Shown: positions 29,394 to 55,427, counted from the stretch's first letter. The stretch is DNA of 64,000 nucleotides from an uncultured Bacillales bacterium (GCA_946403545.1 CAMJAG010000001.1:872-64871); one strand, 5' to 3'. Translations and numbers: made by a program. Notes: generated from the letters alone by a model not told the origin.

Positions 29394-29410
29394 AATACTG
29401 TCCTCCTTCA

Positions 29411-29776
29411 TTACTTATTAATGTGTATAGTTAGTATGTTCTCAGCATCATTCCAAGAAGTTGAGAACTTGACTGGCTTATCACTAAGCTCAATCTTTAA
29501 TGCTTCAGATATCTTTTTCATAAGTCCTGTTGAAGATATCCTTGCATATGTTTTTTTAACGGAGATTTGATAAATTGCGTATTCATCCAAGTCACCGCTT
29601 TGGACCTTTTCTTTCGTTAGTGGACGAATCACAACATTCTTATTAACATCTAATCCAACTTGTATTCTATATGCATACTCGAATGGAACAGACGCAATAG
29701 TATTCAATGTAATATTCGTATTATAGAAAGAAGCGGTACCAATTTTTTCTTCTGAACTAAACCATTGAATTTCCAT
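29411..29776 (-). CDS. hypothetical protein co-transcribed with flotillin
   Basis: 121 aa. Its stop overlaps the first in-frame ATG of the flotillin ORF (TAATG). No motif recognised. Confidence 0.5.
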   Translation of the reverse strand: MEIQWFSSEEKIGTASFYNTNITLNTIASVPFEYAYRIQVGLDVNKNVVIRPLTKEKVQSGDLDEYAIYQISVKKTYARISSTGLMKKISEALKIELSDKPVKFSTSWNDAENILTIHINK

Positions 29777-38998: not shown

Positions 38999-39829
38999 AT
39001 GAATAATGAAACAAATAAAAATGAATTAGAGAATGAGAAAGTTTATATTTTCATTTCGCATTCTCATAAAGATATAGAAAAAGTAAGAAAAATTAGAAAT
39101 TATTTAGAGAGTCTTGATTGTGAACCAATTCTTTTCTTTTTAAAAAGCAAAGATGATGAAGATGAGATAATTCAACTTATCAAAGACGAGATTGATGCTA
39201 GAGTTTGGTTTATTTATTGTAGATCTATAAATGCATCTAAATCTAAATGGGTTAATGATGAAGTAACATATGTTGAGCAAACAGGTAAAAACAACATAGT
39301 TATAGATATCGATGGATGCCTAGATGAAAATGGAGAATTAAAAAATAGCGTTAAAAATAAACTTAATGTCATTATTAACGGATTTAGAAACTTACAACAA
39401 TTGTATATTTCTTATTCACACAAAGACTCTGTTGAAGTTCTTCGTATTGTCCAGTTTTTAAAAAGATATGGTGTTGATTTGTTTTATGATGACATGACAC
39501 ATTTTGGATCAGATTGGAAACATTCTATTCATAATCAAATTGTTAAATCGCCATATTTTCTGGTTTTTTTAAGCAAACAATCCATTAATTCACATTTCAT
39601 TTATGATGAAATAAAGCTAGCACAATACTTTAATAAAGAAATAATTCCCGTAATTCTTTATAACAATATTAACGATTATTATTCAGTCATTGAATCAGAT
39701 GTTTTCCAAAAGAATTTTGCATACTTTTTAGTCTGTGAATTCGATACTTCTAGTGATGTTCAATTCAAAGTGTCCTCATTTAGACTGCTAAACACATTAT
39801 TAGAGCATTTCTTTACGGATTTTGAATAA
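38999..39829 (+). CDS. tandem double-TIR domain protein
   Basis: Two TIR-like units: VYIFISHSHKD...SKWVNDEV and LYISYSHKDS...SHFIYDEI. Each keeps the conserved Glu position. Confidence 0.7.
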   Translation: MNNETNKNELENEKVYIFISHSHKDIEKVRKIRNYLESLDCEPILFFLKSKDDEDEIIQLIKDEIDARVWFIYCRSINASKSKWVNDEVTYVEQTGKNNIVIDIDGCLDENGELKNSVKNKLNVIINGFRNLQQLYISYSHKDSVEVLRIVQFLKRYGVDLFYDDMTHFGSDWKHSIHNQIVKSPYFLVFLSKQSINSHFIYDEIKLAQYFNKEIIPVILYNNINDYYSVIESDVFQKNFAYFLVCEFDTSSDVQFKVSSFRLLNTLLEHFFTDFE

Positions 39830-39832
39830 AAG

Positions 39833-39867
39833 AAAAGGTGGATTCTCATGAGTCCACCATTTTTATT
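39833..39867. repeat. 35-nt direct repeat, copy 2 (bidirectional terminator between convergent genes)
   Basis: AAAAGGTGGATTCTCATGAGTCCACCATTTTTATT. 9-bp stem with an A-run before it and a T-run after it. Confidence 0.85.
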
Positions 39868-41083
39868 ATGTTCGAGTAACTGAGAGGCTAACACTCCAAA
39901 CATAATAGAACATACTTGATGCATTCGCCGTAGGATGGTTTAGATTTAGCATAGCTTCTTCTATAAATAATGCATCTGATTTAGGTACTTTAATTGAGAA
40001 ACTATCCAAATCCGCACCATTGTTACTTTCTAAATGTATCGGGGTTTTATATTGGTTATTGAGTATAAACGACCCATTGATCCAATTACATAACAGCAAT
40101 AATTTTCTACCATAGTTATAGATATTAATCGTATATGTAATGTATTCAGTTGAAGATTCTGCGATCCATTCTTTTAAGTTAAATGGAAGTTTGTACTTCA
40201 ATGATGCATTTGAGGAATAAGTGCTATTTATGGTTGCACTGTTATCTTCAAATGTACTTGTTACACGTAGGCCTGCATAACTCTTATTAAGATTTATATA
40301 TTTATATTCTTCTAATAATGCTTCAGTTCCTAAATAAAGTTTCATTGAAATAGGACTTATTTTTGCAGGTGCAGTTGAGATACAACCTTTTGGTCTAGAA
40401 ACAGTGAATTTAATTCCTTTTAATATCTCTTCTTTATCTAATTTGTACATTCTATTGAAGACTGTGTAGTCATCATTTGAACGGAAGGTTCCACTATCAA
40501 TTAAAGATATTGCAGTATCTAACCTATAATCAACCCAATTAAATGTGTTAATTCCTACTACACCTTCTTCTTTTTCATAGTGGCTGAATTTTATAGTCAA
40601 ATAACCAACTGATTCAGTGTGTTGGAGATAGTATTGATAGTCTTCACTAAGCTTTAATTCATATGATTTTGACTTATTAGAACAAGAGATGTCTACACTA
40701 GGAAAATTGAAGTCTATAATCTGAGCTTCATTAGTGTCCAAATAGTTTGCGTAAATGTTTTCTGGAAGTTCCACATTGTCATAAATTGCTTTGCCAGAGC
40801 GATCCACTAATTTCTTTGAATTTAAGTTTGGCTTTTCGAAACAACCCATAAAGAGTTTGTCCTTCTTCTCTGTAGGTTGATATTCGAAAGTATTTATGTA
40901 TTGTATGGTATTTACTTCACCATCGTTTGCAATAACATTAACTTCCTTCCATGGAATTGGTTGTGGCTTATAATCCTCATCTAAAATCGGACAATTTGTT
41001 TCCCCTTTCATAGAAAAGGAACATGCACTGATAGATAATAACGAGACTGCTGTTATGAGTATTAAGCTAATTTTTCTTTTCAT
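39866..41083 (-). CDS. lipoprotein, function unknown
   Basis: The ORF-track start at 41101 is a TTG inside the SD. The ATG at 41083 (MKRKISLIL...SISAC lipobox) lies 9 nt after GGAGG. Confidence 0.55.
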   Translation of the reverse strand: MKRKISLILITAVSLLSISACSFSMKGETNCPILDEDYKPQPIPWKEVNVIANDGEVNTIQYINTFEYQPTEKKDKLFMGCFEKPNLNSKKLVDRSGKAIYDNVELPENIYANYLDTNEAQIIDFNFPSVDISCSNKSKSYELKLSEDYQYYLQHTESVGYLTIKFSHYEKEEGVVGINTFNWVDYRLDTAISLIDSGTFRSNDDYTVFNRMYKLDKEEILKGIKFTVSRPKGCISTAPAKISPISMKLYLGTEALLEEYKYINLNKSYAGLRVTSTFEDNSATINSTYSSNASLKYKLPFNLKEWIAESSTEYITYTINIYNYGRKLLLLCNWINGSFILNNQYKTPIHLESNNGADLDSFSIKVPKSDALFIEEAMLNLNHPTANASSMFYYVWSVSLSVTRT

Positions 41084-41124
41084 AATTGAGATCCTCCTCA
41101 ATTACAAAATATCACGAAAATAGG

Positions 41125-41746: not shown

Positions 41747-43099
41747 CTATTTCTTAAATCCTACACAAACAAAGCGGTTAACTGCGTACCAAAAATCATT
41801 TCTAGAGAAACGATATTGGAGTTGCGTTAACAAATCTTCCATTTCATTGAACTCTGCTTTAGTTTGCTCATTTTCGTTTGCGATTAATTGAGCTTTAAAA
41901 TAATTCAATCTATAAGCAAAGCTTACTTTATAAAGACCTAATTTCTCTTCATAAGACATATGAGATGTTTCTGTAACAGTGCAATGCATTTTAACTTTGT
42001 TAAATCCTTCATGGACTAACCAAGAATAAAGTTTTCTACCATTGTTTCTATCAGACATTCCTTCAAGAGAATAAGATTTCTTTAAGACTTTTTCTATAAG
42101 CTCATCATCTCCATAAGAAATCTTACTGCCATCATCACTACCTCTAACAATAATCATTCCGCCTTTATTCATAAGAGCCTTTAAATTCTCTAATGCTTTT
42201 TCAGGATTTGTTAGATGATGGAGGACTAAGAAACAAGAAACAACATCAAAGCCTTTAATGCCCTTTTGCTTCATTATTCCCTGCATTTCCTCCATAAATG
42301 TTGGACTTTCAATATTTAATTGATAGAAAGAGAACTTACTATTTTTATTATTTTTATTTGCTTGTTCAATAGCACTTTCACTAATATCGATTCCCACTAC
42401 TTTAGTGTATTTTGCTTTTCTAAAAGCTTGTCTAGTTACATATCCTTGAGCGCAACCAACATCTAGAACTGTGTAATTGTTTTTGTCTAAATACATGTCT
42501 AAAATGCGTTGGTTTTCATCATCATATCTAGATCCTTGGCTTTTTAATCTTTCTGATTCATTAGTGAAATCAAATTCATAAATAGACCATCTTCCTTTGT
42601 AATCAATGCAATCTTTTGGTCTTGGTCTAGAAACTAAAAACCTATTAAACAATCTCTTTTGATAATCATTTACATCAAAAACATCACCAATTGGTTCACT
42701 ATGACAATCTCTAATTGCGTCAATTTCCTTTGGTAACTTTTTTGGATAATTAACTTTATCTAAGAATAAAACTAGAATATTTAATCCTTCAGTTTTTAAA
42801 GCGGTTTCTATTTCTTGTCTAACCCAGTCATCTTTTTTAAATATTCTCTTAGAAAATGTATCTGGAGTTACAAGAAGAATAAAGTCTTTGGAATTATGGA
42901 TTGCATTAGTTAACTGAGGTGGAAACATACCACCTTGAATTGATACCTTATCAAAGAAACTTAGATAACCATTATCCATCAAATTTCTATATAAAAGATA
43001 CGTTGGATATAATCCATCACTTCTTCTATATGAAATGAAAACATCATATATAAAATCTTTTCTCTTAATTTGAGTGTTTTTATTAATTTCTTCAGGCAT
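41747..43099 (-). CDS. TIR domain fused to a class I SAM-dependent methyltransferase
   Basis: N-terminal TIR (DVFISYRRSDG...DDWVRQEIE). Central methyltransferase motif I VLDVGCAQG, then FDVVSCFLVLHHL and MIIVRGSDDG. SD AGAGGA. Confidence 0.7.
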   Translation of the reverse strand: MPEEINKNTQIKRKDFIYDVFISYRRSDGLYPTYLLYRNLMDNGYLSFFDKVSIQGGMFPPQLTNAIHNSKDFILLVTPDTFSKRIFKKDDWVRQEIETALKTEGLNILVLFLDKVNYPKKLPKEIDAIRDCHSEPIGDVFDVNDYQKRLFNRFLVSRPRPKDCIDYKGRWSIYEFDFTNESERLKSQGSRYDDENQRILDMYLDKNNYTVLDVGCAQGYVTRQAFRKAKYTKVVGIDISESAIEQANKNNKNSKFSFYQLNIESPTFMEEMQGIMKQKGIKGFDVVSCFLVLHHLTNPEKALENLKALMNKGGMIIVRGSDDGSKISYGDDELIEKVLKKSYSLEGMSDRNNGRKLYSWLVHEGFNKVKMHCTVTETSHMSYEEKLGLYKVSFAYRLNYFKAQLIANENEQTKAEFNEMEDLLTQLQYRFSRNDFWYAVNRFVCVGFKK

Positions 43100-43198: not shown

Positions 43199-45580
43199 AT
43201 GTATCCTGAATTACTTGCTATTTTCATTATTACTGGAGTTGTTGAACTCGTTTTAATAGGTGTATTTTTTTATAACCTAATCAGATATAGATATCTTGGT
43301 AATAAATATTTTTACGTAACTGTAAGTGTATTAGTTCTTTTGATGTATTCAACATTCGTCAATAGATCATCAGATCTTTCTATTTCTATGTTTGGAAACA
43401 TAGTGTTTGACACTATTGCGGCAGCAGTAGGTAAAGTTGATACTGAAAAGATTTCTTGGCTGTTTTTACCGGGCGAATGGAATAAATGGCTAGTAATTTT
43501 CTACTTTATCGCCTCATATACAACATTCGCATTCTTATCCATCACAGTTATTCTTAACTTTGCAAAACTCTTCTTAAATGCATTTATTTTCTATAAAAGA
43601 CGAATTATAAATGGAGCAAATGTGTACTATTTGTTCACAGATTCTAGAAATGAAACAGTAATTCCTTTAGCCACTAAACTATTAGATGAAACAAAAGGTC
43701 GTAAAAACTCAGTTAAAGTTTTCGTTTCTAGAGCATCTTTAAAAACTCAAGAAGGTAATGAATTTAGAGATATGTTAGTGGGCTTAGGCATTCCTGTTCA
43801 AGCTGAAAAATTCTCATACAGGATGGCTAGAAAGATCTTTAATTCTAGATACTTCAAACTACATCTTTTTGATAAGCAACAATCGTTTATTTACTTACTT
43901 TTCTCAAATGACGAAACCACTACAAAAGTGGCAACTGATTTCAAAACAGCGATTCAAAAGAATCGTAAGTTTAAAAAAATTAACGACTTTGTAACTCTTT
44001 TAAAGGAAACAAAAGACAAAGATAAATTAGAGAAATTAAAAGAGAACTTTAATGAGAAAGAATATGATTTATTACAAAAAATCCAAATCTTTGTCACTTA
44101 TCAAGAAACAGATTTAGATATTCTCCATAACTTCTCTGGAGAGACATTGCATATCATGAATACTCTTTCTAAGTACGACATGATTGCTTCTAGATTTGTA
44201 TTTGATAATCCAATCTCTCAATTAGTGGACTTAAACAACATCAAACTTAAAGAAGACAATAAACATTTAAATGTTACACTCCTTGGTTTTGGTGTTATTG
44301 ATAGAGCAATATTTGAAAGAATGACATTCTCTTATCAACTTTATGGAGATAATATTAACAAAGTTAATTACCATGTTTTAGATAGAGATGCTGATTCTTT
44401 AATTAAACCTTATGTAAACGAATATACAGATAGAAATAACAGTGTTTATCTATACTCTATCGACTCCGCTTTCGATGGAGAAGATTTAAGACACTACGAA
44501 ACAATTGATAGATATATCTCATCATTGCAAAACGATCCAAACCGTTTCCAAGATGATGGTTTTGAAATCTTTGTTATTTCAGTCATAAACTCAAATAACG
44601 ATTTAAATATCGCGCTTAACTTAAGAAGAGCTATCTTAAAATACTTCAATGATAGATGTGAACAAGTTGTTATTTACGTCAGAGTTGCAGAAAGACTCAT
44701 TGGAGAACAATTCAGAGGTTCAAATCTTTCATACACATACGAAACTCTCTCTCATATTCACGAAGTAAAAGACTTCAATAAGAAATCTGATGTAGAGAAA
44801 GAAGCATACTTCAACTCATTCAAGGACGAGGAAGAAAGAAAAGCAGCAGAGAAAAGATTAATTAAAGATTTAAAAGCACCTATCATTCTCTTTGGTAATG
44901 ATGCAATTATGTCCACATATCTTGCTAGAGAACATAAATACTTCATGGGATTCGCTGAAAACGCTTGGAAATCCTACCAATTAGAACAAGCTTATAACAA
45001 TTATTCTGAAACTCAACTTGATAGATTATGGTTAAGACAAAATAAACAAGAAGTTAAAAATAACACTGATTATGTTCTTTCACTTAGAACAAAGCTAAAC
45101 TTATTTGGCTACAAACTAAATCTAAATAAACAAGAAAACCAATACTTAATGGTTCCTGGTGATGATGTTTCAATTCTTACTTCAGGTGAAAATGAAGAAA
45201 CATTCCTTGAAAGAACAAAACTTAAAGATGAAACTGGTGATGTTGCAAAAGTTCTTAAGATTGCTGATATGGAACATAACCGCTGGTTACAATCCAATAA
45301 CCAAAGATTTAGATATTTATCTAAAGATTACACAAAGGTCGAGGATCAAGAACTATTTGGAGTGAATAAATACACCAATGAAAAAGAAATCACAAGGAAA
45401 TATAACGACAATACACAACACATTTGTATGGTCACTAATGAGGGATTAAGAGACTTCTACAATTATGTTGGAAAGAAAAATCCTGAATATAAAGATGTCG
45501 CTTTAAAACTTGTGTACACAAACGATATTGTTCAGTTAAGAACGATAATCAAAAATGGAACAGAACAAAAGAATAAATAA
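43199..45580 (+). CDS. large membrane protein with Rossmann-like (GxGxxD) segment and weak C-terminal RyR-like signature
   Basis: Four or five N-terminal TM segments. VTLLGFGVIDRAI. C-terminal IADMEHNRWLQSN. SD GAGG. Confidence 0.5.
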   Translation: MYPELLAIFIITGVVELVLIGVFFYNLIRYRYLGNKYFYVTVSVLVLLMYSTFVNRSSDLSISMFGNIVFDTIAAAVGKVDTEKISWLFLPGEWNKWLVIFYFIASYTTFAFLSITVILNFAKLFLNAFIFYKRRIINGANVYYLFTDSRNETVIPLATKLLDETKGRKNSVKVFVSRASLKTQEGNEFRDMLVGLGIPVQAEKFSYRMARKIFNSRYFKLHLFDKQQSFIYLLFSNDETTTKVATDFKTAIQKNRKFKKINDFVTLLKETKDKDKLEKLKENFNEKEYDLLQKIQIFVTYQETDLDILHNFSGETLHIMNTLSKYDMIASRFVFDNPISQLVDLNNIKLKEDNKHLNVTLLGFGVIDRAIFERMTFSYQLYGDNINKVNYHVLDRDADSLIKPYVNEYTDRNNSVYLYSIDSAFDGEDLRHYETIDRYISSLQNDPNRFQDDGFEIFVISVINSNNDLNIALNLRRAILKYFNDRCEQVVIYVRVAERLIGEQFRGSNLSYTYETLSHIHEVKDFNKKSDVEKEAYFNSFKDEEERKAAEKRLIKDLKAPIILFGNDAIMSTYLAREHKYFMGFAENAWKSYQLEQAYNNYSETQLDRLWLRQNKQEVKNNTDYVLSLRTKLNLFGYKLNLNKQENQYLMVPGDDVSILTSGENEETFLERTKLKDETGDVAKVLKIADMEHNRWLQSNNQRFRYLSKDYTKVEDQELFGVNKYTNEKEITRKYNDNTQHICMVTNEGLRDFYNYVGKKNPEYKDVALKLVYTNDIVQLRTIIKNGTEQKNK

Positions 45581-45588
45581 CCTATGAA

Positions 45589-45614
45589 AAGCCATAGAAC
45601 TGGCTTTTCTTTTT
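45589..45614 (+). terminator. intrinsic terminator after the 793-aa gene
   Basis: AAGCCA (45589-45594) pairs with TGGCTT (45601-45606), followed by TTCTTTTT. Confidence 0.6.
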
Positions 45615-45632
45615 ACTTTACACTACAAATAC

Positions 45633-45645
45633 ACGCATAATGCGT
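45633..45645. promoter_or_regulatory. perfect palindrome ACGCAT-A-ATGCGT abutting a TATAAT box (candidate operator)
   Basis: Palindrome at 45633-45645. TATAAT at 45648-45653. The operon starts at 45695. Confidence 0.3.
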
Positions 45646-45694: not shown

Positions 45695-46618
45695 ATGATT
45701 ACAGAAATTCATAAGAATTATTCTGCTTTTCGAGAAATGTTGTTAGCCACAACTGCTTTAAGCAACCGTTCTAGTAAGAAATATGATGACGATTGCAAAG
45801 CAATCATTGATTTCATCGGAGAAGCATATGGTCTAGAAAAAGACCTCGTAGAATATTGTAAAAAGGTCATTTTAGATGAACTAGTTACAATATCTACTGA
45901 CCAAGATATCCGCGCTTTCGTAAATTCACATACCGCTGACAGTGAATTAGAAGAATTAGACTCTTTATTAAGCGCTAAATGTGATGTTATTGGAGTTATT
46001 AGAAACTTTGGAGAAGTTAGAAGTCCTCAATTAAGTGAGACTTGGTTTGACTATAGTCATAGCAATCCATATTATCCAGAAATTAGATATCAACAATTAT
46101 CTATCGCTGCTTCCACAGGTAATGTAGTAGCAAATAAGATCGTTGGTATTCTTTCTGTTTTAGGTATTGGATGCGAAGCTACTAGAGAAAAGGTTCTTTC
46201 TGGAGTTTATAGACTTAGACAATGCGCTATTTGGGGAGACATTTCTTCTCTAATTATGATTAGACAAGTTTATAGAATCTTAGAAATGAAAGAACAAGTA
46301 AAACTCTATGATGAATTAGTGTCATTAGTACCTTTCATGAAAGAAGGAAGAACAGTAATTCCTCAAAGAATTGCAGAGAAAATCTCTAGAGAAGCAATAG
46401 AAACATTCGCAATTATCTGTTCTATTAAACAAGACATTATCTTAAATCAACATAAGTTCTACATAGATTATTCATTCGTTGAAGTTATGTTACTTAAAGA
46501 AGTTGATTACTATGATAAACTCCACTTCATTAATAAATATGACGCTCAAGAGTGGAAAGAAGTTACTAACTCATCATTTAATCCAAATAAGAAGATTGGA
46601 TTTAAGATTGGAGAATAG
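45695..46618 (+). CDS. helical repeat protein (Sel1/TPR-like?)
   Basis: 307 aa. The segment AASTGNVVANKIVGILSVLGIGCEATREKVLSGVYRLRQCAIWGD resembles Sel1-like repeats. SD GGAG. Confidence 0.35.
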   Translation: MITEIHKNYSAFREMLLATTALSNRSSKKYDDDCKAIIDFIGEAYGLEKDLVEYCKKVILDELVTISTDQDIRAFVNSHTADSELEELDSLLSAKCDVIGVIRNFGEVRSPQLSETWFDYSHSNPYYPEIRYQQLSIAASTGNVVANKIVGILSVLGIGCEATREKVLSGVYRLRQCAIWGDISSLIMIRQVYRILEMKEQVKLYDELVSLVPFMKEGRTVIPQRIAEKISREAIETFAIICSIKQDIILNQHKFYIDYSFVEVMLLKEVDYYDKLHFINKYDAQEWKEVTNSSFNPNKKIGFKIGE

Positions 46619-46621
46619 ATT

Positions 46622-48586
46622 ATGAAAAGAAGACCATATTCTGAACAAGTATCTCAAAAATACATTGATCAAAATCTTGAAAACACTCAAATAATGTCCT
46701 TCCTTGAATATAAAGGTAAAGGCTACGCTAAATACTTATTTGATGATTTAGCAAAAACTGATATCAAAGGATTCCCATTCTCTAGTGATTTTGTATCTTC
46801 TAAAGGGAAATCATATTCCTTTATTGATTTTGAAAATCTAAGTGATAAAGAAAAAGCGGATTGTAAACTTAGATTCTTCTATTTACCTAATTATCATGAG
46901 TTATATATCGGTACTACTGGTTCTGGTAAAACTACAGGATGTATTGAACCACAAATCAGAGCGATATCCACTCAAAAGAATAAAGCTAACTTATTTATTA
47001 CTGACCCTAAAGGTGAGTTATTTGAACATAATGGTAAATACTTAAAAGACCAAGGTTATAACGTATTTGTTCTTAACTTTAGAAACTTAGGTAGAACTCA
47101 TACATGGAATCCACTTAAAGAAATGTATGAAAAACAAATGGAATCTCTCACTATTGGAAAGAATAGTAAGAAATGTAATTGTCCAGTAGATAAGTCACTA
47201 GCGTTAATGTCTGAAAAGAGTAAATATCAAGGCACATATATTGCTTATAAACACATGGCATTTGCAACACAAGAAGACTTTGATAAATACGTGAATATTG
47301 AAACTTATTTAAATAAATCCAAAGTTTCTTCATTAGTTAACCAATTATGTGACTGTATCTTTAGTGAAGATAAATCCACTACAGATAGAACTTGGAGTGA
47401 TGGTGCTAGAGGATTATTCCATGGTATTTTATTGTCCATGTTAGAAGAAGCTGTTTTACCAGGAAGTAAGTTTAGCGAACAACATATGACATTAAAGACA
47501 GTTAACGATATCTTCAATTTAATTAGAGAAGGTAGCGAAACTCGCGATTCATATGGAGATCACTACACTAACGAAGAAATGCATGAGAAGATGGTAGACT
47601 TCTTGCATGGTAAATCATCTATTTGTATGAGCAAGTTAAATAATATTATTAAGACTGCTCAAACAACGAGAAAAGGGTTTTTATCAACATTCTTATCCAC
47701 TACTGAAAAATGGATGCAAGGTCACATCTATCAATTGACAAGTCATACATCTATTTCTCTAGAAGATAATGAACATCCTTGGGCGGTATTTGTATCCACT
47801 AGAGACTATGATAAATCAGATAATGTTATCGCTGGTTTATTCATTGACTGGGTATATAGACAATCTCTACAAGCTGTTGAAGAGAAACGTAAACTCGGTT
47901 TAGAACCTAGACCAATTCACTTCTTATTAGATGAATTCGCTAACATTCCAAGAATCCCTGACTTTGATAATAAGATTGCTACTGCTAGAAGTAGAAATAT
48001 GTGGTTCCACTTATTCGTTCAATCTTATGATCAATTAGATTTAATCTATGGAGAAGAAACAGCCTCTATTATCGTAGATAACTGTAACCAACAAACATTC
48101 TTAGGTTCTCAATCTCAAGAAACTAAAGAAAGATTCTCTAGAGAATGTGGTAAAAAGACTGTTACATCCTTAGAAGGTGTTATTCATGGTGAAGTTAACG
48201 ATGTTGTAGAAATCCCAGTTGTGCCTATCACAAGTCTAGATCAAATCAAACCTGGTGAAATGTACACTAAACGTATTTATTCTCCAATATTAAGATGTAG
48301 CTTTATCAGAAGCTATCAATGCGCTCAACAAGGTATCTTTAAAAACTTCTGGAATAATAAAGCGGAAGAAGAACTTATTCCACTTAACTATGTTATTCCT
48401 GATGATTTAGAACATTCTTATTTACCAGTATTAAGCGCTATTGAAGTAAGAAGATTATGTCCACCTAGACCAAGAAATCCTCGTAGTAGAGTTCAATACG
48501 AAGATGAAGACATGGAAGCAGAAGATCCTGAAGACTTTGAAGACTTCTTACATGAAGTTCAACTTAAGATGAAAGGAAAGAAGTAG
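46622..48586 (+). CDS. soluble VirD4/TraG/TraD-family (type IV coupling protein-like) P-loop ATPase
   Basis: Walker A GTTGSGKTTG. FITDPKGE. Walker B-like HFLLDEFANIP. Also FHLFVQSYDQL. No N-terminal TM segments. Acidic C-terminal tail. Confidence 0.7.
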   Translation: MKRRPYSEQVSQKYIDQNLENTQIMSFLEYKGKGYAKYLFDDLAKTDIKGFPFSSDFVSSKGKSYSFIDFENLSDKEKADCKLRFFYLPNYHELYIGTTGSGKTTGCIEPQIRAISTQKNKANLFITDPKGELFEHNGKYLKDQGYNVFVLNFRNLGRTHTWNPLKEMYEKQMESLTIGKNSKKCNCPVDKSLALMSEKSKYQGTYIAYKHMAFATQEDFDKYVNIETYLNKSKVSSLVNQLCDCIFSEDKSTTDRTWSDGARGLFHGILLSMLEEAVLPGSKFSEQHMTLKTVNDIFNLIREGSETRDSYGDHYTNEEMHEKMVDFLHGKSSICMSKLNNIIKTAQTTRKGFLSTFLSTTEKWMQGHIYQLTSHTSISLEDNEHPWAVFVSTRDYDKSDNVIAGLFIDWVYRQSLQAVEEKRKLGLEPRPIHFLLDEFANIPRIPDFDNKIATARSRNMWFHLFVQSYDQLDLIYGEETASIIVDNCNQQTFLGSQSQETKERFSRECGKKTVTSLEGVIHGEVNDVVEIPVVPITSLDQIKPGEMYTKRIYSPILRCSFIRSYQCAQQGIFKNFWNNKAEEELIPLNYVIPDDLEHSYLPVLSAIEVRRLCPPRPRNPRSRVQYEDEDMEAEDPEDFEDFLHEVQLKMKGKK

Positions 48587-48587
48587 T

Positions 48588-49133
48588 ATGGCTAACGATA
48601 ATTTTGAAGAATTATATAAACAAGGAATTATAGTCATCACTACTGGTATAGAAGATATGGATGTTACTAGTAACATCATCTTATCTCTTCTTAATTGGAA
48701 CAGAATTGATCCAAAGAAAGAATTACAACTCTATATCTCTTCAGTATCTGGAGACTACCTAAATGTCCTTTCTATTTATGACGCTATCCAATCAATTAGT
48801 AATCCAATTTCAGGATATTGTATTGGTTTAGTTGGTAGTTGCGCTGCACTACTTTTAGCGGCGTGTAACAAAGGTAAACGCTACATTTTAGAGCATAGTC
48901 AAATTGCTTTAAGAGAGATTTCTGGCATTATTCCTGGTGGAAGTAAACAACAAACAGAAATCGAAATTCTCGCAAACGAATTAGCGTCTCAAAGAGAAAC
49001 ATTTGAATCTCTTCTTTCAAAACATACAGGTCAATCCGTTGAAGAAATACACCACCTTTGCTATGAAAACACTTATTTAACTCCTGAAGAAGCTATTAAA
49101 AAAGGCTTCGTAGATAAGATTGTGAGGAAATAA
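48588..49133 (+). CDS. ClpP-like (S14) subunit, predicted catalytically inactive
   Basis: Aligns by eye with ClpP. Ser is kept (GLVGSCAA), but His is replaced (IALREI versus IHQP) and Asp is replaced (YENTYL versus ERDRFL). Confidence 0.6.
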   Translation: MANDNFEELYKQGIIVITTGIEDMDVTSNIILSLLNWNRIDPKKELQLYISSVSGDYLNVLSIYDAIQSISNPISGYCIGLVGSCAALLLAACNKGKRYILEHSQIALREISGIIPGGSKQQTEIEILANELASQRETFESLLSKHTGQSVEEIHHLCYENTYLTPEEAIKKGFVDKIVRK

Positions 49134-49135
49134 TT

Positions 49136-49648
49136 ATGGATAACAGAATTATTACTTTAAATGGTGAAATCAACGAAGGAAGCGCGATGAAAGTTATTCT
49201 TTCATTACTTCAAATGGATGCTGAAAATAGAAAACAACCAATATATCTATATATCAACTCTCCTGGTGGAAATATTGTTCATGGATTAGCAATATATGAT
49301 GTTATGAATAACATATCCGCTCCGGTATATACAGTATGTAATGGCATGGCAGCATCGATGGGTAGTTTCTTACTCTCTTGTGGTGCTAAAGGACATAGAT
49401 ATTGTTTAAAACACTCTCGTATTCTTATCCATCAACCACTTGTCTATAACAACTATGGAAGAATGATTGAAGAAAGCGAAGCTCAACAAATCGCCGCTAA
49501 TTTAAGAAAAGATAGAGATAAATTAGAACAAATCATGGCAGACAATTCTGGTAAAGACATTAAAGTCTTCCATAAGGATTGTGAAAGAGACCATTGGATG
49601 AGCGCTCAAGAAGCTCTAGACTATGGTCTAATAGATAAGATTATCTAA
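49136..49648 (+). CDS. ClpP-like (S14) serine protease subunit, catalytic triad intact, N-terminal axial region missing
   Basis: YINSPGG, GMAASMG (Ser), ILIHQP (His) and CERDHWMSAQEA (Asp). It starts at the position equivalent to RVIFLTG of canonical ClpP. Confidence 0.7.
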   Translation: MDNRIITLNGEINEGSAMKVILSLLQMDAENRKQPIYLYINSPGGNIVHGLAIYDVMNNISAPVYTVCNGMAASMGSFLLSCGAKGHRYCLKHSRILIHQPLVYNNYGRMIEESEAQQIAANLRKDRDKLEQIMADNSGKDIKVFHKDCERDHWMSAQEALDYGLIDKII

Positions 49649-49650
49649 GA

Positions 49651-49680
49651 AAAGAGGAAGTCCTAGACTTCCTTTTATTT
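49651..49680. terminator. bidirectional terminator shared by the convergent operons
   Basis: GGAAGTC (49656-49662) pairs with GACTTCC (49666-49672), flanked by an A-run and a T-run. Confidence 0.65.
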
Positions 49681-50433
49681 CACTCTATTAAGTATTAACT
49701 CAAGTGTTTCTTGGTTATTTGCAACCACTAATGAATCGCTACCAAATTCGTATTCTTTTTTATTGATGGTTTTATAAACCATTCCAGCTTCTTTTATCAA
49801 TAAAAGACCTGGTGCTATATCCCATATGTAATTGTAGTAGCAGATATATGCTTGTGCTTTTGATGTGGCTAATGTAGTAAAGTCTACACAAGCCGCTCCT
49901 AAAAGTCTCGTTTTAAGGAAATTCCCTTGTAAATCCTTCATTAATTCAAATTGTTTATCAAATGAAATGGTTTTGTTATCTTTATAAAAATCACTAGATA
50001 ATAAAACTCCATCTTCATGTTTAATATCTTTATTTACTTTAATAGGTTTTCCATTAAGGAAAGCTCCACCATCTTTCTTAGCAAGATATAACTCATCCTT
50101 ATATGGCAAATAGATTATTGATAACACTACTTCTTTCCTTTGGAAAACCGCTAGTTGAATACCACAAAGTTCTATGCCCATTGAATAGTTACAAGTGCCA
50201 TCAAGTGGATCGATAACAAAGGTTAGTTCATCTGTTAGTGGTTCGTTTTTACTTTCTTCTGCGATTATTTTTGCTTGAGGGAATTCTTTTTTAATAGCGT
50301 TAACAAAATAATCATTAAGTTCTAAATCCGCTTCTGAGAGTAAGTCATTAATAGATTTATGTTTAATTGATTTATGTTGCTTAAAGAATATGTCTTTTGA
50401 AGATAAAACTAGTTGTTTTAAATACTCTTCCAT
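49675..50433 (-). CDS. inositol monophosphatase / CysQ-family phosphatase
   Basis: Motifs IDPLDGTCNY and WDIAPG. Starts 4 nt after the TIR-STAND stop. Confidence 0.75.
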   Translation of the reverse strand: MEEYLKQLVLSSKDIFFKQHKSIKHKSINDLLSEADLELNDYFVNAIKKEFPQAKIIAEESKNEPLTDELTFVIDPLDGTCNYSMGIELCGIQLAVFQRKEVVLSIIYLPYKDELYLAKKDGGAFLNGKPIKVNKDIKHEDGVLLSSDFYKDNKTISFDKQFELMKDLQGNFLKTRLLGAACVDFTTLATSKAQAYICYYNYIWDIAPGLLLIKEAGMVYKTINKKEYEFGSDSLVVANNQETLELILNRVK

Positions 50434-50437
50434 GCGA

Positions 50438-53284
50438 TTATCCCTTCAAATCTCTAATAAATTTCTCAACATGTTTAATCCATGTTAATACTGATTCATT
50501 TTGTAAGTATTCGTATTTTCTTGTTACTTTTTGTGCTTCGCAAATCAAATTATATAAAGCTTGTGCTTCAGTTAATTCGATTGGAATATTTAGTTTTTCC
50601 GCAATTTCAATTGCTTCAGAACAAGGAGCTTCCGCTTTTGCAAGTAAGGAAGTATCTCCATTATAGTTTACTAAATAGTAAAGAGAAGTTAAGAAATAGA
50701 TTTGACCTTGGTCATATAAATCTTTATTCTCTTTAGCACATTTCATTGCTTCTTCTTTTAATTCCATGATCCTTGCTTCATTGCCACGATTAACAATTTC
50801 ATAGAACATAGATGTATATAAGAATCTTGTGTAATATCTATCATGTTGGTTATATAAGACATAGATTGCTTCCGCTTTATTAAGTTTATCTTTAGCTTTA
50901 GCTAAATCCATATGCCATATACATGCATCAGCGTATACACGATAGTCTTCCGCTAAGAAGAGGTGATCTCCAATTTGAGTGCCATCTTCCATTTCTTCTT
51001 TAACTCTTTTATCAAGAAGCGCGACAGCATTATCTGCTGCTTTATAGCAGTTTTCTAAATCAAGCCTTCTACAATAAACTTTTGATAAAGTTAAGTTAAT
51101 CAAAGATTCTTCGTATAAATCGCCTGCTTCTTTAGCGTCTTTGATCGCACCATCACTCATTCCTATGAGTTCGTCGAATAGCACCATCTTGCGATAAACA
51201 AGCATTGCCATTCTTTCAAATTCACTACGAATTTCTATGTCTAATTCGCCTAAATCATGTTCTTTGATGAATTCTTTAATGTCATTAAATGCTTCAGTAA
51301 ATGATAAGGAAATATAGTGGAATTGAATAACTCCCATATCATAGTTCACATCATCACTTGGATCTCTATTCTTTAAGAACTTACCAAATCCTGCTTCTTT
51401 AAGTTTGATAAATAAGCCAGCGTTATAGATTGCTTGTCTATATTTGATAAAGATTTTTGTAAAACATTCAGACTGATAGATTTCAAACGCTTCATAATCA
51501 TCATCCTTATAGATGTAATTGATGTTATCAATGTATTCAAATAATCCTTCATAAAGAGTGTAAAGTTTTGATTTAATACACACTCTTAAAAAGTCAAAAT
51601 TCTTTAATAGTTTACAAAGTTTTTCTGTCTTTTTAAGTGCTTTTAAGGCTTTTTGATAGTCTAAGATGACATAAGGATTGTTCTTCCATTCACCTAATTC
51701 AATTTGCTTTTCAATATATTCAAGCAAGATCTTATAACCATCTCTTCTAGAGACACAATATTTTGCAGGACATTCGTTAGATTCACTTAACCAGTCTAAA
51801 ATTGATTTATGTCTACTCTTAAGAGTGCCATCTTCAATAATTACAAAGTAATTAGATACTATATCGATATTCTTTCTAATTTCAGATTCTGATAGACCTG
51901 TTGCATCCGCTAAAAACTCCACTGTTGGAGGAACGCTTGTAGCGAGTAATAAAGATATAATCTTTCTAATATCTTCATAATCATCTGGTGCTTTAGGGAA
52001 AATTCTATCAAACCAGATTAAGTAGTATGAATAAATTCCGTCAGGGAATTCTCTAACGTTATCTAAAGAGTATTCACCACTCTTAATTAGACTAACAATA
52101 CTCTTAGCATATAAGAATGATCCATGTGTTTTTCCAAGCAAAATCCTCAGTGTTTCTGCATCGAATTTATAATTTGAGAGTGCTTGGTCATAATACTTTT
52201 TAATATCCGCAACGTTTTCTTCATTGTTTTCTAACATGCTGAAAACGTGACAACTTGAGAAGTAACTAACAACATTCTTTTGAGGTCTAGTTGAACATAA
52301 AATCTTTAACCAAGAAGGTAAAGTGTTTTGATAAGTCACTATCATCTCAGCAATTTCATTTTTATTATCCAAAACTGCTTCATCTAATGCATCGATAACA
52401 ATTATTTGAGGGTTCTTAAAAGTAACTTTGTTACCTACTTCAATAAAGAACAACTCAAATAATCTTTTAGCGTCTAAATTATCTATATTTGCTTCTCTAG
52501 TTAAAATCTTTTTAATTTCGAGATTATAATCTTCGTTACGACCAGCGATTTGTGCTGCTAAGTTTTTAATAATACTTCTAGCGTCAGTCTTAGTTCTATT
52601 ACCAAAGCTACAGAAATGGATACCTGCAACATTGTTATGGAAATTAATAGTTAACATAGCGCACATTGCAGTCTTTCCAATACCTGGAGCAGCTTGTAAT
52701 AAATAGATTGGTAAACTATCTGGTTTATTAATCCATTTTTCTACATCCGCGAAGAAAGAATCTCTACCAACAAAGTTGAGTGTATGATGAGTAATTTCAA
52801 AAGCGTCAATAGCTTGGACTTCTTTAGAAATATCAAAACCAGTATCGAAGTAGCCTACTTCTTCTTCGTTTCTAACGATCTTTAGTAATCTTTGATAGCA
52901 ACTTTCGTATACATCTTCAATGATTGAATTATCCGCTGCGACAGCGTTTTTAATCATGATTCTTTGTAAACGAACAATTGAAAGAGGAACATAAGAGTCA
53001 TCTAACATGATAGGAACAATTGTTTTCTTATATTCCACTGCTCTAGCGAGTTCATTTAAACAATATCCGTCTAGAGAAACAGACTTTTTAGATACAAAGA
53101 AAACAAAATGACTACATCTTTGAATCGCGTTATCAATTTTAGTTTCCCAATCACCTTGATATAGATAGTCCTTATCAAGGAAGACTTCATAAACTTCTTC
53201 TTTGCGTAAATCAGTAACAACTTTATTGACTACGTTTTCTAAAGTTTGATGTCCATAGGATATGAAAATAACTTGTTTATCCAT
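50438..53284 (-). CDS. TIR - STAND P-loop NTPase - TPR-like repeat protein (Avs/bNACHT-like architecture)
   Basis: TIR (VIFISYGHQ...GYCLNELA). Walker A APGIGKTA. Walker B IIVIDALDEA. The C-terminal roughly 400 aa is a helical repeat region. Confidence 0.75.
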   Translation of the reverse strand: MDKQVIFISYGHQTLENVVNKVVTDLRKEEVYEVFLDKDYLYQGDWETKIDNAIQRCSHFVFFVSKKSVSLDGYCLNELARAVEYKKTIVPIMLDDSYVPLSIVRLQRIMIKNAVAADNSIIEDVYESCYQRLLKIVRNEEEVGYFDTGFDISKEVQAIDAFEITHHTLNFVGRDSFFADVEKWINKPDSLPIYLLQAAPGIGKTAMCAMLTINFHNNVAGIHFCSFGNRTKTDARSIIKNLAAQIAGRNEDYNLEIKKILTREANIDNLDAKRLFELFFIEVGNKVTFKNPQIIVIDALDEAVLDNKNEIAEMIVTYQNTLPSWLKILCSTRPQKNVVSYFSSCHVFSMLENNEENVADIKKYYDQALSNYKFDAETLRILLGKTHGSFLYAKSIVSLIKSGEYSLDNVREFPDGIYSYYLIWFDRIFPKAPDDYEDIRKIISLLLATSVPPTVEFLADATGLSESEIRKNIDIVSNYFVIIEDGTLKSRHKSILDWLSESNECPAKYCVSRRDGYKILLEYIEKQIELGEWKNNPYVILDYQKALKALKKTEKLCKLLKNFDFLRVCIKSKLYTLYEGLFEYIDNINYIYKDDDYEAFEIYQSECFTKIFIKYRQAIYNAGLFIKLKEAGFGKFLKNRDPSDDVNYDMGVIQFHYISLSFTEAFNDIKEFIKEHDLGELDIEIRSEFERMAMLVYRKMVLFDELIGMSDGAIKDAKEAGDLYEESLINLTLSKVYCRRLDLENCYKAADNAVALLDKRVKEEMEDGTQIGDHLFLAEDYRVYADACIWHMDLAKAKDKLNKAEAIYVLYNQHDRYYTRFLYTSMFYEIVNRGNEARIMELKEEAMKCAKENKDLYDQGQIYFLTSLYYLVNYNGDTSLLAKAEAPCSEAIEIAEKLNIPIELTEAQALYNLICEAQKVTRKYEYLQNESVLTWIKHVEKFIRDLKG

Positions 53285-53966
53285 GTACTTTTTCCTCTAA
53301 AGCAATGTTATAACCCGCTTTCTTGCCTTCATTTAATGTTTCTTCATTTGCTAAATGCATAAGAGTAATTTTCTTTCTCTCTTCCATATTGAAGGCGTTA
53401 TTTAATACTGAAATATGAGTATGTATCATCGCATTAAGAGAAGTTGTAACTTCATGATACATTTCATCTATTTTTCCTGATTTAAGTTCTCTAACTGCTC
53501 TATCAAGTAGTTCAGATGTATCTCCTGAATAGTAGAAATTAATTTCTTTAGAATATACAAAATATGCATAACTACCAGGAATATGTGGAACTTCAACAGG
53601 TTCCACTTTTAAATCTTTGATTAAAGAGTAGTCATTATATATTTCAAAATCAAAATCTAAACCAGTTAATTGGAGTAGTTTTTTAAGATTATCTTTTAAA
53701 GGATAGAAGACTTTTACCGTCTTTTTTGAGAAGAAATGAATCCAATATAAGAATGGTTCAAGGCTTCCAATATGATCACTATGAAGATGGGTAATTAAAA
53801 CAACAATTTCATCAACATCATCTAAAAGATGAAGTGCTAAAATCTTGTCACAAATTTTCTCGCCCATATCAAAAATATACAATTTGCCATTTTGTTTAAA
53901 ATAAGCACAATTGTTATTTGTGAAATAGTTAAAAGCGGCTCCTACACCTAAAAATTTTAAATACAT
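53277..53966 (-). CDS. metallo-beta-lactamase-fold hydrolase
   Basis: HxHxDH motif as ITHLHSDHIG. Overlaps the TIR-STAND start by 8 nt. Confidence 0.75.
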   Translation of the reverse strand: MYLKFLGVGAAFNYFTNNNCAYFKQNGKLYIFDMGEKICDKILALHLLDDVDEIVVLITHLHSDHIGSLEPFLYWIHFFSKKTVKVFYPLKDNLKKLLQLTGLDFDFEIYNDYSLIKDLKVEPVEVPHIPGSYAYFVYSKEINFYYSGDTSELLDRAVRELKSGKIDEMYHEVTTSLNAMIHTHISVLNNAFNMEERKKITLMHLANEETLNEGKKAGYNIALEEKVHG

Positions 53967-53968
53967 AA

Positions 53969-54226
53969 TTATTTAATTATCTTATAGCCTTCTTTAAGAA
54001 TACATTTAATCGTAGCAAGAGCGGTATTCCTATCATATTCTTTTTCTTCTTCAGGAAGTTCATCATAAGGCACTAAACAAGGAGTTTGTTTTTTAGTGTC
54101 ATTTCTTTCTGGACCATAGGTCCATCCATCTTTGATTCTTCCTTCCATCCAAGTTATATGGACTTGTTCCGCTATTATTTCGATAAGTTGTTTTATATCT
54201 TCAGTGATAACAATATCTTTTTCCAT
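53969..54226 (-). CDS. stand-alone RyR (ryanodine-receptor repeat) domain protein
   Basis: AEQVHITWMEGRIKDGWTYGPERNDTKKQTPCLVPYDELPEEEKEYDR closely follows the bacterial RyR-domain consensus. Confidence 0.7.
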   Translation of the reverse strand: MEKDIVITEDIKQLIEIIAEQVHITWMEGRIKDGWTYGPERNDTKKQTPCLVPYDELPEEEKEYDRNTALATIKCILKEGYKIIK

Positions 54227-54228
54227 AA

Positions 54229-54666
54229 TTATTCGTCTTCTAGTATTTTTTGAAATAAGCTGTATTCATCTCTAGTTATTGTATCATCACTAGCAGTTAG
54301 AGCGATACCATATAAAACAACAGCAGTTTTAGTATCTTCATCAAATTCTTCTTTGATATTATTTACCATTGCTTTAACAAAAGCTTCTTTATCTCCAAAT
54401 TGAGTAGCATGGAAGAATTCTCTATAAGAAACATCTAATCCTGTTGCTTCTTTAAAGAATCCATATTCCTTAACAGCGCAATCTTTATCAGCAGAAACGT
54501 ACATTCTAGTTAAGTTAATAACAATATTAGCGATTCTATCTTTGTGATAATCTTGTTTTCTAAGATTACGATAAAGTCTTTCTAAAGCTTGTCTACCTAA
54601 CTTTGCTCTTTCAGCATCTTCTAAATTAACAACTTCATGCATGACTCGTTCTACTTCTTTATTCAT
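54229..54666 (-). CDS. TerB-like domain protein (paralog 2)
   Basis: Two half-motifs, YVSADKDCAVKEYGFF and LTASDDTITRDEYSLF, resemble TerB. Confidence 0.5.
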   Translation of the reverse strand: MNKEVERVMHEVVNLEDAERAKLGRQALERLYRNLRKQDYHKDRIANIVINLTRMYVSADKDCAVKEYGFFKEATGLDVSYREFFHATQFGDKEAFVKAMVNNIKEEFDEDTKTAVVLYGIALTASDDTITRDEYSLFQKILEDE

Positions 54667-54681
54667 AATATGTTCTTCCTA

Positions 54682-54903
54682 TTATTTTTTACTTTTTAGA
54701 TTACAAGCATTTGGGAAATTAATTTCCCACGCTGCTGCTCTTGCTATTTGAAGTAATTTATATTTCTTATCTTCATCAGTTATCTCTTTGATAACTTCTT
54801 TAGTATTTGGATTTAACAAAAATATTTTGGATTCTTTAACTCCAAATACTGAATCTCTTACTTCGTATAAGTGTCTTCCGTTACGAAATTGAAATGGTTT
54901 CAT
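54682..54903 (-). CDS. hypothetical small protein
   Basis: 73 aa. Its start overlaps the upstream stop (TAATG). Confidence 0.45.
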   Translation of the reverse strand: MKPFQFRNGRHLYEVRDSVFGVKESKIFLLNPNTKEVIKEITDEDKKYKLLQIARAAAWEINFPNACNLKSKK

Positions 54904-55331
54904 TATGCAAGCAATTTGTCGATTAAATCTTGTTCTGCAACTGTTAATGTGTGGTCACTTGCTAAGAAAGTAACTGCAAATAAGACCATACTTGTTCTTG
55001 TTTTGTTATCTGCTTTTTTCATTAAGTTAGCAAATTCATTAACATAATCATCATCTAAGCCACCATTGGTCATGTCATAGAATGTATCTGTATCCATATC
55101 AATACCAGTGACTGCTCTAAAGAAAGAATATTCTGCTCCACTACATTTGCCATCAGCAGAAACTAAAATTCTAACTAAGTGAATAATTAAGTTAGTAATT
55201 TCATCCTTATTACAACCGAGTTCTTTTAAACCTCCGATAAAGTCGTTTAAAGCATGTGCAGCAATATTAACTTTTTCTTGTGGTTCTTCGTTTAAAATGT
55301 TTTGGCACATTTTTCTTAATTCAGCATCCAT
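54903..55331 (-). CDS. TerB-like domain protein (paralog 1)
   Basis: LVSADGKCSGAEYSFF and FLASDHTLTVAEQDLI. I prefer the ATG at 55331 (MDAELRK), which lies 7 nt after GGGAGGA. The ORF-track start is 55349. Confidence 0.5.
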   Translation of the reverse strand: MDAELRKMCQNILNEEPQEKVNIAAHALNDFIGGLKELGCNKDEITNLIIHLVRILVSADGKCSGAEYSFFRAVTGIDMDTDTFYDMTNGGLDDDYVNEFANLMKKADNKTRTSMVLFAVTFLASDHTLTVAEQDLIDKLLA

Positions 55332-55427
55332 ATGAAATCCTCCCATCATTAATGAAAGACTTCAAACATATAGTTTTTGTCCATTCAATTACATATAAAT
55401 ATCTGTCTAAATTTATTTTATCATTTT

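Follow-up and report, generated by a model that had tools for sequence, protein, structure and literature searches.

The window analysed here is the whole stretch of 64,000 nt from an uncultured Bacillales bacterium, and the element of interest is an operon at positions 45695–49648 of its plus strand, which encodes a soluble VirD4/TraG-type ATPase, a Sel1-like helical protein (A307) and two ClpP-like paralogues. The four open reading frames (ORFs; 307, 654, 181 and 170 aa) are separated by intergenic gaps of 3, 1 and 2 nt, and a GGAG-type Shine–Dalgarno motif lies ahead of each of the four starts. A preliminary description of the sequence had placed four plus-strand genes here, 1–3 nt apart and each with its own Shine–Dalgarno motif, and all four lie where it put them. 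The operon and the features that border it are as follows.

43199–45580, plus strand: up793, a membrane protein and accessory component, with a terminator between it and the operon
45586–45609, plus strand: terminator-like hairpin 3′ of up793 (9-bp stem with 4 GC pairs, then TTTTTACTTT)
45612–45641, plus strand: promoter-like site 5′ of the operon (TTTACT-18-CATAAT, 9/12 consensus matches; a consensus match only)
45695–46618, plus strand: A307, an all-alpha protein with Sel1-like central repeats; core component
46622–48586, plus strand: the 654-aa VirD4/TraG-type P-loop ATPase, free of transmembrane (TM) segments; core component
48588–49133, plus strand: ClpR-like, catalytically dead ClpP paralogue of 181 aa (CLP_protease, 1.4e-39)
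49136–49648, plus strand: triad-intact ClpP-like paralogue of 170 aa (CLP_protease, 1.8e-58)
49655–49673, no strand assigned: bidirectional terminator-like hairpin (AGGAAGTCCTAGACTTCCT, A/T runs on both sides), common to the operon and a convergent minus-strand operon

Terminators had earlier been drawn at 45589–45614 and 49651–49680; hairpins are present at both places, with the coordinates shifted to those given above. Seven terminator-like sites occur in this stretch, against 1.9 ± 1.6 in shuffled sequences.

The unit is a chromosomal, non-conjugative cassette with a soluble coupling-protein-like ATPase and a Sel1-like helical partner at its core, and it belongs to an undescribed type of modular cassette in which interchangeable accessory modules surround this two-gene core. 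A literature search found no description of a VirD4/TraG-type ATPase combined with a ClpP pair and the accessory genes, in keeping with the preliminary description, which had not recognised the combination from described systems.

The ATPase carries the motifs GTTGSGKTTG, FITDPKGE and LLDEFANIP, on which its initial assignment to the coupling proteins was based, and three Pfam families agree with that assignment (T4SS-DNA_transf, 1.6e-37; TraG-D_C, 8.1e-28; TrwB_AAD_bind, 5.3e-20). Sixteen homologues show no variation in the Walker A and Walker B residues. The nucleotide-binding domain is conserved, the variable parts being the all-alpha segments 181–240 and 301–340 and both termini, and the N-terminal (~90 aa) and C-terminal (~140 aa) regions are specific to the family. 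No TM segment was found, the maximum 19-residue Kyte–Doolittle score being 1.03, which bears out the reported absence of N-terminal TM segments. The tail had been called acidic, and this holds for a stretch with 12 D/E among the last 45 residues but not for the extreme end, which is basic (KMKGKK). An acidic/aromatic C-terminal tail (..DDFDF, ..WGVFDD) is found family-wide, independently of the presence of ClpP. A sequence search of the PDB with the ATPase gave no match at 1e-3, and a viral fold search gave no significant match.

The partner protein A307 has no match to the Pfam Sel1 repeat model at E ≤ 0.01. A profile of its family, searched against 1.84 billion representative proteins, recovers ~76 full-length clusters, while residues ~130–200 also match many long multi-repeat proteins, five of which were checked and are Sel1-repeat proteins according to Pfam. 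Similarity to Sel1 repeats is found at the profile level and in structure. The earlier Sel1-like designation is right for about two central repeat units, where the profile supports what the Pfam model does not, and the remainder of the protein is a family-specific helical fold. Across relatives, A307 has diverged to 32–56% identity. A Tis1_ImmP match in its C-terminus (20.6 bits against a cutoff of 27) was treated as noise; Tis1 is an immunity protein for a type VI secretion system (p)ppApp-synthetase toxin.

Relatives of the ATPase number in the thousands, and the closest ~120 are 590–700 aa long, cover at least 85–90% of the query and share 43–99% identity with it. A survey restricted to one genome per species recovered at least 460 relatives, and neighbourhoods were taken from the best 80 loci (cited below by their L numbers), nearly all of them from metagenome-assembled genomes (MAGs) of gut and rumen Firmicutes (Bacilli, Erysipelotrichaceae, Acholeplasmatales, Christensenellales and other Clostridia). 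A tblastn search identifies A307 as the gene immediately ahead of that for the ATPase in 74 of 77 loci with a readable position, and finds ClpP genes in 25 of the 80 (both paralogues in 20, one in 5). Clustering of the neighbourhood ORFs returned three further recurrent families, F3 (~850–1100 aa; 17 loci), F4 (~725 aa; 13 loci) and F5 (12 loci); the up793 family occurs in six loci, and standalone RyR and TerB-like families also recur. When only complete loci, with 6 kb or more on each side, are counted (n = 38), 35 have A307, 12 ClpP, 17 a member of F3, F4 or up793, 8 F5, and 26 at least one accessory family. The conserved core is therefore A307 plus the ATPase, and not the four genes as a unit, as had first been supposed; since ClpP is found in only about one third of the loci, the ATPase does not need it. 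Conserved co-occurrence of the four genes accordingly holds for the core pair and, within the window's own clade, for ClpP (12/12), but fails for ClpP in about two thirds of the loci.

The accessory modules recur in varied positions and orientations. The window has the Bacilli-type arrangement, in which up793 precedes A307–ATPase–ClpR–ClpP and the RyR and TerB-like genes follow. Locus L051 has a single operon of the order A307–ATPase–F4–ClpR–ClpP–F3–x–F5, and L011 likewise has ClpR–ClpP between F4 and F3 inside one operon with A307–ATPase; these two operons indicate that the core pair, ClpR/ClpP, F3, F4 and F5 belong together. The co-occurrence of ClpP and RCK-type proteins among complete loci is not significant (Fisher p = 0.087).

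Several copies of the cassette are present in some genomes. A tandemly duplicated cassette is found in a Candidatus Enteromonas MAG (L002, 1–5627; ATPase–ClpR–ClpP–A307–ATPase). Contig L098 (Logan SRR19415671; 6304–21902) has two diversified A307–ATPase pairs in tandem with one shared ClpR/ClpP pair, beyond which lies a gene for a 408-aa protein of no assigned family; the opposite strand encodes TIR-like (254-aa), F3-like (907-aa) and RyR proteins, followed by a vWA protein and a Ser/Thr kinase. The same contig (30,995 bp) may also carry, outside the range examined, a third ATPase paralogue, P0094.

The resemblance of the ATPase to coupling proteins could potentially be explained by descent from a decayed integrative and conjugative element (ICE), or by a mobilisable island that has retained nothing but a coupling protein of its own, with which to exploit a helper type IV secretion system. 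The closest NCBIfam model, NF045973, is indeed that of the conjugative CD1115 VirD4-like family (240.4 bits, just short of its cutoff of 250), and the best plasmid relatives are annotated as conjugative coupling proteins. The protein nonetheless exceeds no NCBIfam coupling-protein cutoff, scoring far below those of all other models, and its best plasmid match, to conjugative Bacillus plasmids, has 28% identity and spans residues 79–516, the core only. No full-length relative (at least 80% of the protein) was found in 72,556 plasmids or 50,697 phage records; viral contigs and phage records yielded just distant coupling proteins with 24–35% identity. About 37 ORFs of the window were scanned for domains, those left out all being shorter than 340 aa, and neither a relaxase nor a VirB4 domain was found among them, nor any other conjugation gene, in agreement with the preliminary description, which had reported no relaxase, VirB4 or channel genes in the 64 kb. 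In the 80 loci, the recurrent families among the clustered neighbourhood ORFs include no relaxase, VirB4, integrase or other conjugation family, the other recurrent neighbours being holB, an rsmI-type methylase, TrmO, ABC transporters and similar genes. The ATPase family never lies inside a conjugation module in these loci, the one arrangement that the preliminary description would have taken as the sign of an ICE remnant. The specific termini of the ATPase and its A307 partner are moreover conserved over deep divergence, which points to a distinct function maintained by purifying selection. An ICE remnant can be all but ruled out, and the broader explanation, with the mobilisable island included, is extremely improbable.

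The two ClpP-like proteins form a pair of which one member appears catalytically dead. In the 170-aa protein the triad is intact (Ser74, His99 and Asp152), while the 181-aa protein keeps the serine and has His replaced by Arg and Asp by Asn (S-R-N); both match CLP_protease, and the initial reading of one intact and one His/Asp-replaced protein was correct. The same division holds across related loci. Triad-intact copies read SHD in all 26 cases, and the dead partner copies have degenerate triads in all 20 (GGS, ASG, NRG, SRN and others); the gene order within the pair is always the dead copy followed by the active one. The 170-aa protein aligns only from residue ~26–28 of solved ClpPs and has neither axial loop nor helix A. 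For the 181-aa ClpR, the alignment with B. subtilis ClpP begins at residue ~16, so that helix A is kept and the axial loop is absent. Active copies that occur in pairs begin 2–7 residues before the canonical ~26–28 start, while 11–14 extra residues are kept in the dead copies.

The hydrophobic pocket by which ClpP receives the IGF/LGF loops of its unfoldases, which in E. coli consists of Y60, Y62, F82, I90, M92, F112, L114 and L189, appears to have been remodelled. The E. coli ClpP reference used for the numbering has a length of 193, in agreement with PDB entry 1tyf. On this numbering, Y62, F112, L114 and L189 stay hydrophobic, Y60 is replaced by S/T in most active copies and by Q/K in dead copies, and F82 is mostly H/Y/N in active and S/T in dead copies. 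Neither of the window's two ClpP-like proteins scores above an NCBIfam ClpP cutoff (best 198.5 against 249 bits; TIGR00493, 180 against 308.6 bits). Removal of the axial loops from ClpP opens the pore and weakens its coupling to ClpX and ClpA. Because these loops are absent, it is unlikely, as far as can be judged from sequence, that the pair members are ordinary subunits of ClpXP or ClpCP; the missing loops and the seemingly remodelled docking pocket fit ClpPs that do without ClpX or ClpC. No ClpX, ClpA or ClpC domain was found in the same scan of window ORFs, as the preliminary description had noted for the vicinity of the operon. In two Acutalibacteraceae loci (L075, 6460–7044; L078, 134–724), a single full-length ClpP gene (194–196 aa, SHD) immediately precedes A307 on the same strand and takes the place of the truncated pair; it could be a housekeeping clpP placed there by chance or the ancestral state of the linkage.

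The linkage between the ATPase and the ClpP pair follows the ATPase tree. The ClpR/ClpP pair is present in 12 of the 12 members of the window's clade, at ATPase identities of just 45–64%, and lies downstream, upstream or between duplicated cores. In one Christensenellales clade it is present in 9 of 9, as a ClpR–ClpP–F3 operon divergent from A307–ATPase, and elsewhere on the tree it is sporadic. The proposed survey for VirD4-like genes next to paired ClpP genes recovers, in the window's own clade, a linkage kept through rearrangements. Together with the pair shared by two cores in L098, this clade-wide linkage supports functional coupling of the ATPase and ClpR/ClpP in the window's and the Christensenellales clades.

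A profile of the dead paralogue also recovered seven metagenome contigs (L091–L097) on which the dead/active pair occurs with neither the ATPase nor A307 within 3–7 kb. These solo pairs come from two or three related sequence groups and adjoin an EcoRI-like methylase and a GmrSD_N–HNH nuclease; together with their neighbours they may be a separate small system that shares the protease module. In L092 (1241–6226), the gene after the solo pair encodes a conserved protein of ~250 aa, which spans the membrane once and has an acidic linker rich in alanine. Such pairs raise the alternative that ClpR/ClpP is an independent small module with a function of its own, and stands beside the cassette merely through a shared integration hotspot or lineage synteny, as the varying position of the pair relative to the core would also allow. 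Chance association of this kind sits poorly with complete retention in two clades despite divergent ATPases, with the 1–3 nt gaps in the window and with the placement of the pair inside single operons between F4 and F3, and the solo cases are limited to a few closely related sequence groups. It is therefore considered improbable.

A direct physical partnership has also to be weighed. The VirD4-like hexamer could dock on the ClpR/ClpP barrel and thread polypeptides into it in place of ClpX, ClpA or ClpC, with A307 as the substrate adaptor, in which case the complex would be a new class of ATP-dependent protease. The near-contiguous genes of the window, the invariable linkage in its clade and the single ClpR/ClpP module that serves two diversified core pairs in L098 all point in this direction. 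Docking of a canonical AAA+ partner appears unlikely given the lost axial loops and the changes at Y60 and F82, no AAA+ Clp gene is among the window ORFs scanned, and coupling proteins are known to handle protein substrates. On the other side, two thirds of the family members have no ClpP nearby, the pair also occurs away from the ATPase, and in Christensenellales ClpR–ClpP is co-transcribed with F3 and divergent from the ATPase. A search for diagnostic residues in the ClpP-linked ATPases found no ClpP-specific columns and no IGF-like loop, the acidic/aromatic tail is present regardless of ClpP, and a gate-less ClpP may work without any unfoldase. Direct docking is on balance unlikely. A fuller version, in which a RecA-fold hexamer of the VirD4 type feeds the gate-less ClpR/ClpP (perhaps with pilot proteins of invading DNA or with phage proteins), A307 selects the substrate and RCK/RyR proteins provide a second, ion-flux output, is slightly less likely again.

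The preliminary description was confined to the four genes of the operon and overlooked the genes for up793, RyR and TerB-like proteins, all of which co-vary with the cassette. The up793 protein (793 aa) has TM helices at its N-terminus, after which come tandem RCK/KTN-type domains and, at the C-terminus, a divergent ‘EHNRW’ domain. Its match to Pfam TrkA_N is below threshold, and no GYG or GFG motif, as would be expected of a TVGYG-type K+ selectivity filter, is present in residues 1–140. A GxGxxG motif (GFGYTG) is retained in the F3 sequences inspected, and the C-terminal domain of F3 is RyR-like, as judged by an hhalign probability of 96.4% against the standalone RyR family and a sub-threshold Pfam RyR match. 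For the C-terminal domain of F4 the hhalign match to the RyR family is marginal (43%), and for that of up793 it is not significant, so that a RyR-like designation reaches up793 only through its homology to F4 and F3. The remaining accessory genes of the window lie on the opposite strand.

53969–54226, minus strand: standalone RyR-domain protein (Pfam RyR, 3.3e-26); probable accessory component
54229–54666, minus strand: TerB-like small protein (Pfam TerB, E 0.0025, a weak match below the cutoff); probable accessory component
54903–55349, minus strand: second TerB-like paralogue of the same family (f11), which clusters with the protein at 54229–54666 and has no Pfam match of its own

Standalone RyR genes stand beside the cassette, in varying arrangements, in the window and in L001, L004, L005, L006, L008, L098 and L101. 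The RyR domain is thus fused within F3 in one lineage and encoded by a separate gene next to the cassette in the Bacilli lineage, which is fusion-type evidence that RyR works with these membrane proteins. Members of the TerB-like family f11 accompany the cassette in L001, L004, L005 and L008, and L101 has a 143-aa gene at that position. F5, which recurs next to A307, is ~165 aa long or has a ~330-aa form (examples are L059, 5972–6973; L051, 16442–16918; L022, 6417–6926) and has no match in Pfam, NCBIfam or PADLOC. The ~330-aa form, found in Stercoripulliclostridium-type loci, may be a tandem duplication.

The surroundings of the cassette within the window contain the following further genes, and the first 25 kb of the window is devoted to carbohydrate metabolism.

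26213–27805, minus strand: cardiolipin-synthase-type PLD protein, apparently unrelated to the cassette
27903–29411, minus strand: SPFH/flotillin-like protein adjoining the PLD protein, apparently unrelated to the cassette
38999–39829, plus strand: double-TIR, ThsB-like protein, upstream of the cassette
39866–41101, minus strand: 411-aa protein with no Pfam match
41747–43099, minus strand: fusion of TIR and a SAM-methyltransferase, upstream of the cassette
49675–50433, minus strand: inositol-monophosphatase-family protein, convergent operon
50438–53284, minus strand: TIR-STAND/NPHP3_N-TPR protein, convergent operon
53277–53966, minus strand: MBL-fold protein with a sub-threshold Apyc1-like match, convergent operon

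The last three genes form, with those of the RyR and TerB-like proteins, a minus-strand operon (49675–54666; TerB-like, RyR, MBL, TIR-STAND and inositol monophosphatase, with spacings of 2, 2, −8 and 4 nt) that converges on the ClpP operon. In the sister loci L001, L005 and L101, the RyR and TerB-like genes alone occupy the position of this operon, and the MBL, TIR-STAND and inositol monophosphatase genes therefore look like an insertion into, or an extension of, a RyR/TerB-like operon.

As regards function, the leading though tentative reading is that of a modular, probably conflict-related cassette, in which the ATPase and its Sel1-like partner would serve as receptor and motor, with the accessory modules as outputs; a role in anti-phage or anti-mobile-element defence is the most likely form of conflict. 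A307, the variable all-alpha domain of the ATPase and its acidic/aromatic tail would sense a macromolecular trigger, much as coupling proteins and their adaptors recognise relaxase–DNA complexes or effector proteins. Binding or hydrolysis of ATP by the ATPase ring would then drive the accessory modules, one output being proteolysis by a ClpR/ClpP chamber that lacks an axial gate, and another an altered ion permeability of the membrane via the RCK-type proteins.

Several features argue for such a role. Three TIR proteins (the TIR–methyltransferase, double-TIR and TIR-STAND proteins) flank the cassette in the window, where the RyR and TerB-like genes share a tight operon with the TIR-STAND gene, and L098, L051 and L008 likewise have TIR proteins on its flanks. 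Accessory content is modular, diversified tandem core pairs share one ClpR/ClpP module (L098 and L002), and multiple copies occur per genome. Variability in the ATPase is concentrated in the all-alpha domain, which is of the substrate-binding type, while the motifs are intact, and the solo ClpR/ClpP pair is found beside restriction-modification genes.

Other observations weigh against a conflict role. No PADLOC-DB v2 model matches A307, either ClpP, F3, F4, F5, RyR or TerB-like proteins. Among the 127 nearest non-system neighbours in the 38 complete loci, the 25 most recurrent Pfam families are all housekeeping or metabolic and none is a defence family; the ‘defence-island context’ of the preliminary description is thus local to the TIR-rich surroundings of the window and does not extend to the family, whose neighbours are mostly housekeeping genes. 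GC content gives no island signature, 12 of the 38 complete loci have a bare core pair with no recognisable output module, and in L099 such a pair lies between ligA/pcrA and recO/era/dnaB.

The same setting would suit a housekeeping or physiological module, concerned with membrane-associated ion homeostasis, stress signalling or protein quality control, or a minimal translocation device whose soluble ATPase is anchored by the RCK-type membrane proteins. Core genes surround many of the loci, with neither mobile nor defence genes next to them, GC content is unremarkable, the cassette is retained in small-genome lineages of Bacilli, and RCK-type domains are known regulators of cation flux. For coupling protein TraJ of pIP501, membrane anchoring by a separate small TM protein, TraI, has been proposed (PMC12857230), and this provides a precedent for a coupling protein without its own membrane anchor. 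A physiological role is harder to reconcile with the patchy accessory content and varying genomic position, with diversified tandem paralogues and multiple copies per genome, with the fast divergence of A307 and with the recurrence of TIR proteins beside the cassette in several loci, and no K+ selectivity filter is visible in up793. It is accordingly judged unlikely, about on a par with direct docking, and the conflict-related cassette is retained as the preferred reading.

Two PADLOC matches were considered and set aside. The match of up793 to Csm3 (E 0.0082) is at chance level. The sole PADLOC match of the ATPase is a weak one to mad8 (E 2.2e-10, 38.5 bits), and with this match alone an assignment to MADS was rejected, as a PADLOC scan of six neighbouring genes gave no MADS match.

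In either function, the cassette would show a conjugative coupling protein repurposed for a non-conjugative chromosomal role; to our knowledge, such proteins have so far been regarded as dedicated parts of type IV secretion. Its relatives extend over at least 460 species-level genomes from Firmicutes of the gut and rumen, among them the poorly studied RF39-like Bacilli and Christensenellales, and the family is large, compact and sharply defined, hence directly testable. For protease biology, a conserved ClpP/ClpR family with no axial gate and an apparently altered pocket for canonical AAA+ docking raises the question of how the chamber is regulated. If the ATPase is the partner of ClpP, that protease would have its first known motor outside the AAA+ class, and if both docking and an immune role hold, the cassette would be at once a novel class of ATP-dependent protease and an immune system with its origin in conjugation machinery. 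As an immune system, it would add a new type of sensor (a coupling-protein-like receptor) and two new types of effector (a ClpR/ClpP peptidase and an RCK/RyR membrane protein).

Among known systems, the ATPase is closest to the type IV coupling proteins (VirD4/TrwB/TraD/TraG, CD1115-type and pIP501 TraJ), with which it shares the P-loop domain, the all-alpha insertion, TraG-D_C and invariant Walker A and B motifs. Its acidic/aromatic C-terminal tail recalls that of TraD, which binds TraM. Unlike these proteins, it has no TM anchor and no relaxase, VirB4 or channel genes nearby, falls below all NCBIfam cutoffs, and has its own termini and an obligate Sel1-like partner. The adjacent dead and active ClpP paralogues, in fixed order, resemble the ClpP/ClpR heteromers of cyanobacteria and plastids and the bacterial ClpP1P2 complexes. 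They differ from these proteases in their missing axial loops, in the replacement of Y60 and F82 and in scoring below every ClpP equivalog cutoff; in place of a nearby AAA+ partner gene, they are linked to a RecA-fold ATPase of the FtsK/HerA/VirD4 superfamily.

Likeness to MADS, an 8-gene operon for whose mad8 the paper's text gives no domain call, is confined to the weak mad8 match, and Pfam detects no methyltransferase domain in the cassette genes. Menshen was rejected as unrelated, its NsnB being an ABC ATPase and T4SS-DNA_transf occurring in only three NsnA variants. The up793 protein resembles RCK channels and regulators (MthK, GsuK, KtrA/TrkA and CASTOR) in its domain order, with tandem RCK/KTN-type Rossmann domains after N-terminal TM helices. 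It departs from them in having no visible TVGYG-type filter and a TrkA_N match below threshold, in the extra C-terminal RyR-like domain of this group of proteins (clear in F3, marginal in F4 and transitive in up793) and in its genomic tie to an ATPase cassette.

In overall design, the cassette is reminiscent of Sir2–HerA and DUF4297–HerA, chromosomal cassettes in which a ring ATPase of the same FtsK/HerA superfamily stands beside a potentially toxic effector. Pfam and PADLOC scans of the ATPase gave no match to HerA, Sir2 or DUF4297 models. The cassette described here differs from these systems in that its ATPase is of the VirD4 type, its putative effectors are ClpR/ClpP and RCK-type proteins, and an additional Sel1-like partner is obligate.

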